A stretch of 64,000 nt of DNA from Octopus vulgaris (Eukaryota): contig OX597820.1 in the NCBI GenBank assembly GCA_951406725.2, forward strand, positions 28,024,001-28,088,000, written 5' to 3'. Below are positions 3,450 to 60,843 of the stretch, one piece after another. The translations under genes were made by a program, and so were the position numbers. Position 1 is the stretch's first letter. The number at the start of each line of letters is the position of its first letter. Below the pieces are notes generated by a model. The model made no database searches. It worked only from the letters and a program-made list of their open reading frames with translations, and was not told the DNA's origin.

Positions 3450-3640
3450 CGAATGAAAACACAAGAAGAAAAAACAACAACGCGAGTACCTGGTACATGC
3501 AAAGTATAAAGAGATGCTCAGGGAAGGAGAGAAAGTTAGTTTTACGTTTCGAGAAAACCTTTTCTTCATAAAGAGGAGTCAAAGGAAAGTCCAAAAGAAA
3601 AGGAAGACGAGGGCATAAATCGCCAAAAATCCACTTGTAC
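3450..3640 (-). mobile_element. Short Penelope-like terminal repeat with a decayed hammerhead motif (3540-3573)
   Basis: Minus strand reads ttt-ATGAAGA-aaaggttttctc-GAAACGTA-aaa. The downstream part resembles the fragment near 51270-51340. Confidence 0.5.
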
Positions 3641-4121
3641 ATTTTGAAATGATTAGCAGGGAATGGGTATATATATATATATACATATATATACATACAC
3701 ACACACACACACACACACACACACATATATATATATAATTTAAAAATAGGACAGAATCTTTATATGAATTTCTCAACTGGTTAGCGTGAAAATCCTCATA
3801 AGAGAAAAAAATCCACCAATTTTTTCTCTTAATTATATTTATTTATATTATATAGAGGGCATTACTATGCTTAAATGACACACGCTAGGGGGACTCTTAA
3901 AGTAAAAACTACAAAAATAAATAAACGCATCGTACCGAGTGCGAGGAAATGCAACTCTCGAAGCAAGCCACCTAAAAACATAATTTAACTTCAAATCAAG
4001 TGATTTCATAATTAGTGCAGGAATCCACTCTTTAATCATCAGTGCAAGCATAATTCAAGATTTATAACGAATGAACAAAAATTAACATAGCAGATATTGT
4101 AGTACTAAATAAAATATGACA

Positions 4122-4530
4122 TCTATATATATATATAAAACTCAACTTGTGTGTCTGTGTGTGTATCTGTGTGTGTGTCTGTATGTTTAACTTCCCGGCA
4201 CATCTCCTCCTAGCCAACAAATCGTAGAACCACCAAAAATGGGTCACTTAAAGTTTAGGCGAATGAAAATTGAACTGCGCTATTTCTGTTCCGAAATTCA
4301 TCTCGCAAGTGCAAAAATTGATAATGTGTCTGTTTAGGCATTATCCCATGCATTGAATAGTGAACTTTACTCAGTCAGCTGTTTGATGTGAACTGTGTTC
4401 ACCAAGCGTGCAAGCATGCGTAAATTGCATGAAAAGTCAATATATAATTGCATGCAAAGTCAATATATAAAAACGAATCGCCGTAAATATTGTAGAAATT
4501 CGGCAAAGAAATGAATTTTCAGGATGTAGC
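4122..4530 (+). mobile_element. Non-autonomous Helitron-like element, 5' portion
   Basis: Starts a|TCTATATATATATAAAAC followed by a (GT/GTCT)n tract, the same 5' architecture as the copies at 21612, 36078 and 56428(-). Confidence 0.55.
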
Positions 4531-4730
4531 CTGGAGGGTTTTTTCGTATTAATATATATATATATCATCATATATGTCTATATATATATATATATATATA
4601 TATATATATATATATATATATATATATATATATATATATATATATATATATATACATATATATATATATATACATATATACACACACATATATATATATA
4701 TATATATATATATATATATATATATATGTA

Positions 4731-5002
4731 TGAGACCATGATAGAAGAAGGCTAACTCTTCCTTCCGTAGAAGAAAAAATTCAAATCGGACTATGTTAAC
4801 ACCAAAATTTAGTTACATCAAAAAGATGCCTTTTTTTCTATGAAAATCCCTATTTTTTACGATGTTTTGACTGCTGTGTCGCCATTTTTCGGTGTATTTC
4901 ACTTAAAGAGAATAACAAGCTACATACTGCCAAATTTCTACTTTTCAAAAATTCCAATTCTAAAGGGTCTAAACAAACCGCAACGCCGGGCGATACTGCT
5001 AG
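4731..5002 (+). mobile_element. Non-autonomous Helitron-like element, 3' portion
   Basis: Homologous to 36185-36470. Ends in CAACGCCGGGCGATACTGCTAG|t (subterminal hairpin remnant plus CTAG). Confidence 0.75.
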
Positions 5003-57359: not shown

Positions 57360-57905
57360 AAGCGTGACAATGTGGTAAGACGCTTCCTTCTCAACCACAT
57401 GGTTCCCGGTTCAGTGACTATAGCCTCGGGCCGACCAGAGACTTGTGAGTGGATTTGGCGCAGACGGAAACTAAAAGAACCCCTTTGAATATATATATAT
57501 ATATATACTATATAATATAATATTATATATATATATATATACTATATAATATAATATTATATATATATATATATATCATTATTCGGTAGCCACGATAAAA
57601 CTCCACGTTTCGGATGTCGGGGCGGAAACCCACGCCGCCATCTCTTCAGTTATCCGGCCATCGACATATATATGTGTGTGTCTGTGTGTGAGTGTACATA
57701 TATTTGTGTGTGTGTATCTGTGTTTCTCCACCCACCATCGCTTGACAGCCGGTTTCAGTTTGTGTACTTTAGCGTAACCTAGCGGTTCGGAAAAAGGTGA
57801 GGCTAGAATATGTTCCAGTCTTGAGAAAGATGTAATGCGCTCCATTTGTCCTTCAAGTGGTGACCCGCTGTCCTCAGTCTAGCGACGGAAACAGTGAAAT
57901 GTAAA
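57360..57905 (+). mobile_element. SINE family B with an insertion in its internal microsatellite
   Basis: Head tgtggtaag..caaccacatggttcccggttcagt, body gacggaaactaaaagaaccc, 3' part catcgcttgac..tagcggttcgg; interrupted at 57578-57665. Confidence 0.8.
57594..57654 (-). ncRNA. Type-I hammerhead ribozyme-like motif
   Basis: gataa-CTGAAGA-gatg gcgg..ccgc..catc c-GAAA-C gtgga G-TT-ttatc: 5-bp stem I, extended stem II, short stem III, GUU site. Confidence 0.62.
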
Positions 57906-58079
57906 GACAAATGATATATCAAGATAGATAGATAGATAGATAGATAGATAGATAGATAGATAGATAGATAGATAGATAGATAGATAGATAGATAGATACA
58001 TACATACATACATACATGCATATATGCTTGCATACACACATATATACAAACATACACACACACATATATATACATACGT

Positions 58080-58400
58080 GGCACTCCGTCGGTTAAGACG
58101 ACGACGGTTCCAGTTGATACAATCAACGGAACAACCTGCACGTGAAATTAACGTGCATGTCGCTGAGCGCTCTACAGACACACGTATCCTTAACACAGTT
58201 CTCAGGGAGATTCAATGTGATACAGAGTGTGACATGGCTGGCCCTTTGAAATACAGGTATGATTAATTTTTGCCAGCTGAGTGGACTGGAGAAATGCGAC
58301 TTAAATTGTCTTGCTCAAGTATAAAACGCGTTGCTGGTAATTCAACTCACGACCTTACTGCCGTAAGCCAAACACCTTAACCACTAATGCACGCGTCTTC
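58080..58400 (-). mobile_element. SINE family A: tRNA head, CORE-like block, and the same tail as the 36750 copy
   Basis: Reverse complement ..tccagtccactcagctggcaaaaa..tacctgtatttcaaagggccagcc..gtcgtcgtcttaaccgacggagtgc. Confidence 0.85.
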
Positions 58401-60783
58401 ACATATCTACATACATACATAGGCATAGTTATATAGATGTCACTTTAGCAATAGACACACCGATAATTTATCTTTCGCTTAAAATGAATTTACACTCAAT
58501 ATAGTTTACCTTTCATTCCATTCTGTACTTCAACTTATTCCCCAATGACAAAATATCGCTGATGAAGCATAATAATGGCAGAAGCTCGAAACCCGAAATG
58601 CACAGATCAGTTTCGATGCATGCATCAGCATAACTAAAGATACCCTCTCGCGTAATAAACAGATATAAACAACGTAGTTTCTTTTCCTTTCTTTCATATT
58701 TTAAGTTTAGTCTGACATTTAGTTGCTTCTGCATACCTTTTTGTAGAGCATTAAGTACAGTTTAGGCCCTCGCGCGGGAAGACATACTGTTGATATAATT
58801 TAGTATTATTCAATAATTTGTATTTTGGGACATATGTAAGCATCTTAATTAATTTAGGAGAAGAAACACAAAACATTACAAATTCTATCTCAAAATTACT
58901 AATGGTTTAGGACAACTAGTGCATGTAATAAATCTCCTTTTTAATGTTGTTTTGGATTTGGAATTACTGCACTCAAGAGTATAAACAGATTATAGAATAC
59001 TGAATATGTATGTTATATATTTTATATTTTATGCTTTCTTTCTTTAAATTCCTTTGTTTATAGCATTAAGTATTCTCTTCTTGCTACTTAGTGATAGTAT
59101 TTACTTTATATGCGAAATCATTTTGTCATATAAATCCTGCCAATAATGCTCTACGAATTTTCTTGAAGCTACATTACTCTCCATCAAACAATAAAGATGT
59201 TTAATTATTTTTTTATAGTGTACATGTAACCAGTATATATTAGATAATTCTGTTTGTTTATGCATGACTGTAAATCCTTATCCCTTTACATGTAGCATGC
59301 ATGTCGTCGTGAATTATATCCTCCTTAAGTTTTATCTGCATTTTTAAACGTCTCGTTTACTTTATTTAATACGACAATTCCTACGAAGATAATCCTTATA
59401 TTAGAAATCCGACAAATAATCACTACATTATTTGCTTCTTTATTCTAAGTATATTAATAACGATGTTCCATACAGGGATTTCAGTGGCTCTTTGATTTCA
59501 CAAAGTATCGATGGTTGGTTAAATATACGCTTCTCACTTTTAGTTTTAAGGAACATAAATGTTGTGAAACGCTTTGTAAAACATCAGATATCAATATAGT
59601 TTCATTTTGATTGTATTGTATCTTGTTTGCATGGTTTTGTTCAGATCTTTTTAAACCTTCCTAGATGTAATGTCAGAAATCGTGACGGCTGTACCTCTTC
59701 ACCAGTTGCAACCGACATATGCTCTTAGCAATTTTGAAAAAAGGAAAAACAAGAAAAAAGGAAACATACTTTCGACTTCCATCATCAGTTATGACGCAAT
59801 TCCTTTGGTAACATGGTGTGGGTTATATAGAATTCGGATTTCTTTACGTCAATAATTATAACATTTTCTGAGAATACTGCTTTTGTTGCAATATCTAATT
59901 GATTTGTGGAAGGGTTCTTCAGCTGTTGCTTTTAATCATTTATCAAGGCCAGGAGATTGCGGAAGGAAAAAGGGAGAAAAGACTACCATGGCCCTTTTGT
60001 TTGTTGTATTAGAGAGCGGCATAAAGAGATATTGATTTAGATTGCCTTCAAATTTTGGTACAAGGCCAGCAGGTTTGGGAAAGGGGTAAGTTGATTACAT
60101 CGACCCCAAGGGTTCAAATCATAATTATTTTATCGACTAGAAAGGTTAAGTCGACCTTGAGAAAATTTGAACTCAGAATGTAAAGCTGGACGAAATGTCA
60201 CTAAACATTTTGGCAAGCCTGCTAACGATTCTGTCAACTTGTCGCCCACAGAGGTTTTGAATTATTTTAAAATCTGATATGTGGTTCGAACGCTTGCAAA
60301 CAGATTTCTGCTCTGCTAAAGATGACGAAAGGTCAGCTAGTGAGGTACATATTTTATACATTCACTCTGTTACCGAATATTTTCCAGCACTTCCTCTATT
60401 GGTGGTGGTCTCTACAATATTTCAGTAAGTACACTATTATAAGAACCCTGCGCCTTCGCTTTTCGATAAATATTAACTAGCCCTATTTACGCTGACATAA
60501 GTGCTACTCTCTCTCAAGACACGTTAGTAATTTCTTGGCATATTTTAGTGCTAACTTCATTTCATTACTTTTCAAACATCCTGGTTCATACCTTTCTATA
60601 GAAATAACCCGTAAATATTTCCCTAGACCATTGCTAGATCACCCTTTTGCCTATCGACTTCAAAGCTCTACAGTGAAAGATTGTATGATGTTAATATATC
60701 GAGCCTTCTGGCCTCTTCTCGAAGCCCTGTTCTTTCCTATTCCCTCTTCCCTTCGTTTATTATATTTTACGCGTTTGTATTCA

Positions 60784-60843
60784 CTCTGATGAAACTCCAT
60801 GTCCTATGAATGTCCTGGCATTGGAAGTGGGAACGGCCGTAAG
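60784..60843 (+). ncRNA. Decayed minimal hammerhead-like motif
   Basis: ct-CTGATGA-aactcc...ggaagtg-GGAA-CGGCCG-TA-ag: palindromic ACGGCCGT and GUA site, with GAAA changed to GGAA. Preceded by a pyrimidine-rich tract. Confidence 0.5.

Follow-up and report, generated by a model that had tools for sequence, protein, structure and literature searches.

Minimal hammerhead motifs in a 64-kb stretch of the Octopus vulgaris genome, probably truncated ends of Penelope-like retrotransposons

The DNA analyzed here, referred to below as the window, is a stretch of 64,000 nucleotides from the genome of Octopus vulgaris (G000:C7:28024001-28088000, in an assembly of 2.8 Gb and 227 contigs); it is microsatellite-rich, has a GC content of 33%, and contains no evident host protein-coding exon when judged from its long open reading frames (ORFs). 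Scattered through it are short repeats that carry the motif of the minimal type-I hammerhead ribozyme. A sequence-only reading had listed eleven such sites, and all eleven coordinates agree with the window sequence. Our analysis makes it very probable that these motifs lie in the 3' pseudo-long-terminal repeat (pseudo-LTR) of endonuclease-bearing Penelope-like retrotransposons, a position shown for four families (A, C, E and J) and likely for the others, that they have been left in the window as 5'-truncated stubs, and that they are likely to cleave only as a double hammerhead formed by two copies of the same family. The sites and their surroundings are as follows.

3539..3574 (-): family G minimal hammerhead, core decayed here, stub about 3440-3650; the family form has stem I GUUU/AAAC, a bulged A, stem II GAGC/GCUC and stem III ACGU
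11546..11629 (+): decayed hammerhead of family H with a broken GAAA box, stub about 11330-11730; the family form has a long helix II, stem III ACAGCUGU and a 2-bp stem I
24924..24968 (+): family J hammerhead, U4C core CCGAAGA, stem III AGUACU, 5-bp stem I; the stub, about 24878-25100, is bounded by (TA)n and is the 3' end of a young Neptune/Nematis-type element
31555..31592 (+): unconfirmed candidate that shows GAAAC..GUA and a stem I of 6 bp but lacks a valid 5' core box
33040..33270 (-): truncated family B partner in inverted orientation, a typical Penelope fold-back insertion
33460..33507 (+): hammerhead of family B with exact boxes, ACAGCUGU as stem III and a single mismatch in stem I, stub about 33270-33580
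34359..34394 (+): hammerhead of family E with the U3-A8 variant core UUGAAAA and ACCGGU as stem III, stub about 34220-34460
34560..34620 (+): family C hammerhead, 5' core broken here; a partial copy in inverted orientation accompanies it at about 34455-34540
39616..39639 (+): family I, 3' half only (GAAAC..GUU and the 3' strand of stem I), stub about 39610-39830
54073..54156 (-): family F hammerhead, long helix II, U16.1 lost here, family stem III ACAUAUGU, stub about 54040-54430
54773..54810 (-): intact hammerhead of family A with a canonical core and ACUC-A-GAGU as stem III; the stub (54740-54873, 134 nt) lies between (TA)n, and its sequence is identical to that of a young Hydra-type element's pseudo-LTR
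57594..57654 (-): hammerhead of family C with exact boxes and a single mismatch in stem III, which reads ACUC-G-GAGU in the family form; it represents the 3' end of a Hydra-type element
60782..60843 (+): hammerhead of family D with stem III ACGGCCGU and a 2-bp stem I; in this copy the GAAA box is broken and helix II is shorter

Exact boxes together with a palindromic stem III are found in the window only in the copies of families A, B, E and J, and the family C copy at 57594 has a single stem III mismatch; the remaining six of the eleven family copies are broken or halved. Letters of the core or of the cleavage site are broken at 3540, 11548, 34560, 54073 and 60784, while the family I copy (39604/39616) has lost the 5' half of its hammerhead. 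Of the three more decayed sites that had been proposed earlier, 11548 is broken and 39604 halved, whereas 31555 is single-copy, matches only itself in a genome search and is unconfirmed; four sites outside that set (3540, 34560, 54073, 60784) are broken as well. As read from their sequences, the window copies are ORF-less, 5'-truncated stubs, and no match to the proteins of families A or J occurs in the window.

Descriptors of graded stringency were applied to the window and to local dinucleotide shuffles of it. With exact boxes (CUGAnGA and GAAAC..GUH), a palindrome and stems, two matches were obtained against 0.02 in 100 shuffles, and three against 0.07 when three natural cores were admitted (U4C and U3-A8 added). 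With one palindrome mismatch tolerated, six matches stood against 0.2, and none of 200 shuffles attained six; two of these six (53098 and 9672) are chance-like and sit inside abundant unrelated repeats, so that the shuffles understate the background of the relaxed search. A descriptor allowing one mismatch anywhere was nearly uninformative (nine against 5.9), and a scan for the motif in reverse order gave two matches against 1.9. An Rfam scan of the window, in which microsatellite hairpins dominate, yielded no hammerhead among the 150 of 400 matches listed. Under the strict descriptor, the window thus departs clearly from the rate of shuffled sequence, equality with which had been named in advance as fatal to the reading.

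A stronger test than shuffling is whether the genomic relatives of a site restore the full motif. The family searches returned 163 to 2,402 first-look candidates per site, of which 40 were scored each; the loci compared are the best-scoring fetched matches, the window copy included (the 12-30 best per family). By these searches, ten of the eleven sites belong to nine multi-copy families, one fewer than the roughly ten unrelated repeats that had been envisaged, because 34560 and 57594 are members of a single family (C; 87% over 77 nt). Exact boxes, palindrome and stem I are restored in all 30 fetched loci of family A, in 18 of 25 in B, 20 of 25 in C, 6 of 25 in D (one of them a spurious parse), 13 of 15 in E, 3 of 15 in F, 9 of 15 in G, 6 of 12 in H and 3 of 12 in I. 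A tenth family, J, which was absent from the sequence-only reading, keeps its motif with the CCGAAGA core in 10 of 10 loci. The presence of minimal hammerheads at these sites is hence borne out both by the shuffles and by the restoration of core boxes and stems in relatives of ten of the eleven, and the eleven recognizable motifs in 64 kb agree with the earlier estimate of about one per 6 kb.

The family copies contain the core boxes CUGAnGA (or its U3-A8 covariant) and GAAA and a UH cut site in type I order, J having the U4C core; in family E the U3-A8 core is fixed family-wide and is not a product of decay. All ten families have a palindromic stem III, either perfect or mismatched at its centre, and a short helix I, which measures 2-5 bp in each family's commonest copy. 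The extra nucleotide after A9 and the G10.1-C11.1 pair are clear in G, an unpaired A flanks helix II on either side in families A and B, and family H possesses the G-C pair without the extra base. Within a G-like group of copies, loop II, N7 and H17 vary, stem II and ACGU are constant, and stem I swaps G-C for C-G; it should be noted that the pattern used for this group already required parts of stem II.

The elements to which the motifs belong could be traced in four families. The family A motif is present in both direct repeats (L031:2582-2814 and 6078-6309) that flank an ORF (2949-5084) of 711 amino acids with RWK, DKT, YRDD, a CxCX5C linker, and CxxC and CxH in the endonuclease, but without GxKF; these motifs, like the (TA)n insertion seen in the fetched flanks, are those of the Hydra clade. 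All 150 scored matches to its reverse transcriptase (RT) core are 96-100% identical, many of them in long open frames, and family A is hence young. In family J, hammerheads 4,272 nt apart delimit a tandem unit that encloses a GIY-YIG match (E 1.5e-05) and an RVT_1 match that falls short of the curated threshold (E 2.5e-06), and the protein combines GxKF, DKG, the RT, a CX4CxxC linker and, at its C terminus, GIY-YIG. A stop codon in the first family J copy was rejected as a family-wide trait, since it is common to 3 of 25 copies and the other 22 are open at that codon. The motifs of families A and J lie on the coding strand. In family E, whose window copy at 34359 is the 3' end of a Neptune/Nematis-type element, the RT end, linker and endonuclease lead into the 3' end in L117, an arrangement that L118 partly shares; J and E both possess the RT, the CX2-5CxxC linker and the C-terminal GIY-YIG of Neptune/Nematis elements, these two not being separated from each other. 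For family C, a Hydra-type endonuclease lies upstream in L076, and ORF starts adjoin the repeat in 3 of 25 loci. Insertions terminate in (TA)n, bear optional 3' tails, and are often accompanied by an inverted partner copy, in agreement with what has been published on Penelope-like elements (PMC8557442).

Hence, the assignment to Penelope-type minimal hammerheads is upheld by full elements for A and J and by ORF ends for C and E, and the link to RT and GIY-YIG ORFs that had been sought holds for these four families and was not found in the fetched loci of B, G, H and I. The proposal of independent micro-retroelement families, in contrast, is not supported: in each case that could be traced, an ordinary autonomous element has the motif as its 3' pseudo-LTR, and what the window contains is a truncated stub. 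The Hydra-type fragments of L118 and the RT fragment of L038 probably represent insertions of their own, and an ORF beside a family G copy in L151 was rejected as a partner of G, as it belongs to a different neighbouring element with a U3-A8 hammerhead of its own. That element (L151, oriented 234-1444; also L277 and L249) represents a further Neptune/Nematis-type family with a 3'-end hammerhead and stem III ACCGGU. Window positions 10434-10808 match the DNA immediately upstream of the L117 RT fragment at 86% and may be a decayed piece of the element or another repeat.

In a nearest-neighbour energy model, the double hammerhead exceeds two monomers in stability by 9-18 kcal/mol in nine of the ten families, in keeping with the palindromic, dimer-forming stem III that had been described earlier. 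A transcript spanning two pseudo-LTRs would fold into one double hammerhead, with stems I and III both forming between the copies, so that the partners would have to share family and strand; the two pseudo-LTRs of a full element would supply such a pair, which a lone stub would not. Slow cutting would then free unit-length RNA, and the release of unit-length, perhaps circular, RNA is a published proposal (Cervera and de la Pena 2014, PMC4209133, cited here, like the other papers with an accession or DOI below, from excerpts). Target-primed reverse transcription would begin downstream of the ribozyme and read through an uncut or re-joined site: the insertions run past the predicted cut by 42 nt in A (110 with the tail), about 75 in B and about 135 in J, and the copied RNA was consequently uncut or re-joined at that position. 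Reverse transcription would usually stop after 100-400 nt and leave a stub that, lacking a partner, is probably inert and subject to neutral decay. A rise in depth near the family A cut site, seen in contigs assembled from runs presumed to be RNA, was rejected because it is gradual and also appears in two large unlabelled runs. Assembled contigs cannot reveal RNA ends, strand or level, and the fact that no intron- or circle-like joint was seen in those of the runs guessed to be RNA proves nothing.

Several observations weigh against this account. Family G, with a stem III of four nucleotides (ACGU), gains nothing from the dimer fold (+3 kcal/mol), and stem I of families D and H measures only 2 bp. 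No ORF link emerged from 25 loci of B, 15 of G, 12 of H and 12 of I, and for D and F it comes from one suggestive locus each, so that some families may be non-autonomous. The Hydra-type ORF of family A gives no match in a Pfam search, and its clade is assigned by motifs, without a tree. Finally, cleavage by these motifs is a prediction, and catalysis may be weak or absent, because two-thirds of the strict motifs carry non-canonical cores.

The abundance of the motif was estimated from a genome sample of 100 ten-kb stretches, taken at round coordinates on contigs C1-C30 and picked unseen, though not exactly length-weighted. The strict descriptor gave 32 matches in 600 kb and 25 in 400 kb, compared with 0-4 and 0-1 in the shuffled sets; the total of 57 per 1 Mb (bootstrap 39-77) is distributed over 36 of the 100 stretches and forms 29 sequence clusters, 19 of them singletons that may include false matches. 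Scaled to 2.8 Gb, this points to about 150,000 (110,000-215,000) intact-looking motifs in at least 29 clusters; the canonical CUGAnGA alone amounts to 31 per Mb, or about 87,000 genome-wide. With three strict matches in 64 kb, the window fits the sampled density and is thus typical of the genome. Published counts, obtained with differing descriptors, are about 2,000 plus 1,300 for Schistosoma, 4,000 for coelacanth and 9,000 for Xenopus (PMC4209133); for Acropora the figure is more than 6,000, and for axolotl it reaches 120,000 retrozyme copies.

Core variants were counted in the same sample with strict stems and any single change in the 5' box allowed, a setting that gives fewer than one match in shuffles. 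Among the 51 motifs, 17 are canonical, 13 are U4C, 9 A6U, 8 U3-A8 and 1 G3-C8, and other single changes account for 3; these figures count copies and not independent events. U4C occurs in about eight clusters in addition to family J, the direction of the change being uncertain, since CpG decay could convert CCGA to CUGA. A6U represents a single family, present at 17 copies per Mb according to BLAST and absent from the window. Published work shows in vitro activity for the U3-A8 core and reduced activity for U4C, which nevertheless suffices in a viroid; a literature search on a natural A6U core returned no matching paper, which is not proof of absence. The A6U family (CUGUnGA; L278:3665-3860 and 16 other sampled copies; 3,305 first-look candidates) is G-like and about 210 nt long, with variable N7 and H17 and conserved stems, and an autonomous partner for it was not found. 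A further U3-A8 family (UUGAnAA; L254, L256, L262, L263) has a stem I of 6-7 bp, 6 copies per Mb, and tail and inverted copies.

Among the alternatives, it is possible, though we consider it unlikely, that several families are true non-autonomous micro-elements, resembling solo retrozymes of 200-400 nt, which borrow the enzymes of Penelope-like elements. Families B, G, H and I, with no ORF link, would fit such a picture, as would the preferred 5' starts and lengths near 210 nt in the A6U family and family G, and one tandem array with a spacing of about 535 nt in the genome sample (L353). Yet the typical copies of A, C and J are equally short and turned out to be the ends of autonomous elements, longer upstream extensions occur in copies of G, F, D and B, and the evidence covers only the 12-30 best matches per family. 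The array itself consists of identical hammerheads at L353:2211 and 2746 (+), about 535 nt apart, with a third at 7878 (-), and has the appearance of a retrozyme-like tandem repeat.

A second explanation, somewhat more doubtful, is that the fold has been retained for its structure, serving as a signal (for instance in recognition by the RT), with little or no cleavage. It would account for the frequency of non-canonical cores among the strict motifs (U4C, A6U and U3-A8 against 17 canonical) and for the fact that every insertion copies through the cut site; moreover, published minimal motifs are weakly active even as dimers (PMC4209133), and Naiads spread without canonical hammerheads (PMC8557442). 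It accounts less readily for the near-confinement of the departures to three changes, two of which are known to be tolerated (U3-A8 and U4C), and for the retention of GAAA, GUH and a free N7. We tentatively place beside it a related idea, which we likewise consider unlikely: in a genome whose hammerhead load would be among the heaviest on record (about 150,000, in dozens of families), successful Penelope families may repeatedly have fixed slowed cores (U4C, A6U) while keeping the fold, the cleavage rate being tuned to a slowness at which full templates remain for the reverse transcriptase. If so, the families would be a natural series for testing the purpose of the Penelope hammerhead, whose function in these elements has yet to be settled (Craig et al. 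2021, PMC8557442). The young, ORF-intact families A (canonical) and J (U4C), together with a U3-A8 family and the abundant A6U family, form matched natural test material with which the need for cutting, and its speed, in the spread of the elements could be examined.

That scattered copies act on the host, intronic pairs cutting pre-mRNA or giving rise to circular RNAs, appears improbable to us. The very high density (57 per Mb) is what lends the idea some appeal, and same-family, same-strand neighbours do occur in 2 of the 100 ten-kb stretches; the window, however, has no evident gene, 6 of its 11 family copies are broken, and its sole same-family pair (family C, 34560 and 57594) lies on opposite strands. 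Pairs of mixed family should not form the core junction, because stem I differs among families. The ideas of micro-elements, of host cleavage and of circular RNAs are unsupported so far. The density makes the testing of host-transcript cutting feasible and implies that a very common structured RNA goes unrecorded in the animal's repeat annotation.

Chance matches in AT-rich sequence, for which the frequent hits of loose descriptors in shuffles, the two relaxed matches in unrelated repeats and the unconfirmed site 31555 could be cited, merit practically no credence and are refuted for ten of the eleven sites by 57 strict matches per 1 Mb against 0-4 per shuffled set and by family copies that restore the full motif. 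Some candidates were nevertheless discarded: 58559 and 59788, which show core boxes without stem III, are single-copy, and 40267, 9672 and 53098 fall within unrelated repeats, the motif not being preserved in the other copies of these. For 28195, 38327 and 56438, no match was present among the fetched loci, a genome-wide search not having been made for them.

A few other repeats deserve mention. Copies of the abundant repeat at 53091-53210 (+) retain CUGACGA and GGAAAC about 90 nt apart, with no palindromic stem III, which is probably a chance resemblance. Two copies of a repeat with CUGAUGA, at 6933-7010 (-) and 21690-21800 (+), have no hammerhead stems and are presumably remnants of a DNA transposon. 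At 49841-50426, there are 2.8 tandem copies of an abundant 211-nt repeat that resembles a short interspersed nuclear element (SINE). Just to the right of the window lies an open frame of 200 amino acids (L208:3378-3980), which we take to resemble the end of a PIF1/Helitron helicase.

The closest known counterparts of the window motifs are the minimal hammerheads described by Cervera and de la Pena (PMC4209133), which include molluscan examples (Lottia, Crassostrea). The excerpts agree with our data in the type I order, the short helix I and the palindromic stem III, in the U3-A8 core variant and, in part (clearly in family G), the extra nucleotide after A9, and in the presence of many families per genome, mostly as single truncated copies and with some inverted pairs; helix I of minimal hammerheads measures 4-5 bp, and 2 bp in D. 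virilis. They differ in reporting 2,000-9,000 motifs per genome against about 150,000 here, a comparison that is not like for like as the descriptors differ; family-wide U4C and A6U cores are absent from the passages compared, and several octopus families have stem III palindromes of 6-9 nt and helix II regions of 57-77 nt.

Family A shares with the Hydra clade, as presented in the available parts of Craig et al. (PMC8557442), the RWK, DKT and CxCX5C motifs, the C-terminal endonuclease, the (TA)n targets and a hammerhead with a 9-nt stem III, and with the coral Hydra-2_aMil the same stem I and stem III. It departs from the clade, whose members are generally shorter than 3 kb, in its unit of 3.5 kb, its clear pseudo-LTRs and its many open copies, and its hammerhead is unlike that of Hydra-1_oBim. 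Families J and E correspond to Neptune/Nematis in their CX4CxxC linker and C-terminal GIY-YIG, and J also in GxKF and DKG, an assignment made without a tree; points of difference are the U4C core of J and the U3-A8 core of E. The animal non-LTR retrozymes (PMC7229834; 10.64898/2026.07.22.740005) likewise have type I hammerheads and a link to Penelope, but, according to the excerpts, consist of tandem ORF-less units, each with a hammerhead. The window copies are instead single stubs, four families of which reside in ORF-bearing elements, and no retrozyme-type tandem array was found at any site, either among the 150 of 157 tandem repeats listed or in a self-comparison of the window.

No paper devoted to cephalopod hammerheads was found in the literature searched, which excludes subscription journals and Repbase reports, and a 2026 repeat annotation of Octopus vulgaris (PMC13282606) describes 31 recently active Penelope-like families without using the words 'hammerhead' or 'ribozyme' in the main text as available to us. 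The novelty for cephalopods that the sequence-only reading had surmised must nevertheless be given up, since File S2 of Craig et al. (PMC8557442) gives the hammerhead of Hydra-1_oBim from Octopus bimaculoides, and a giant squid paper counts 235 matches to Rfam Hammerhead_1, a descriptor that differs from ours. The motifs in the window are of an already described animal kind, octopus included, to which the present data add only the density and the family-wide core variants.

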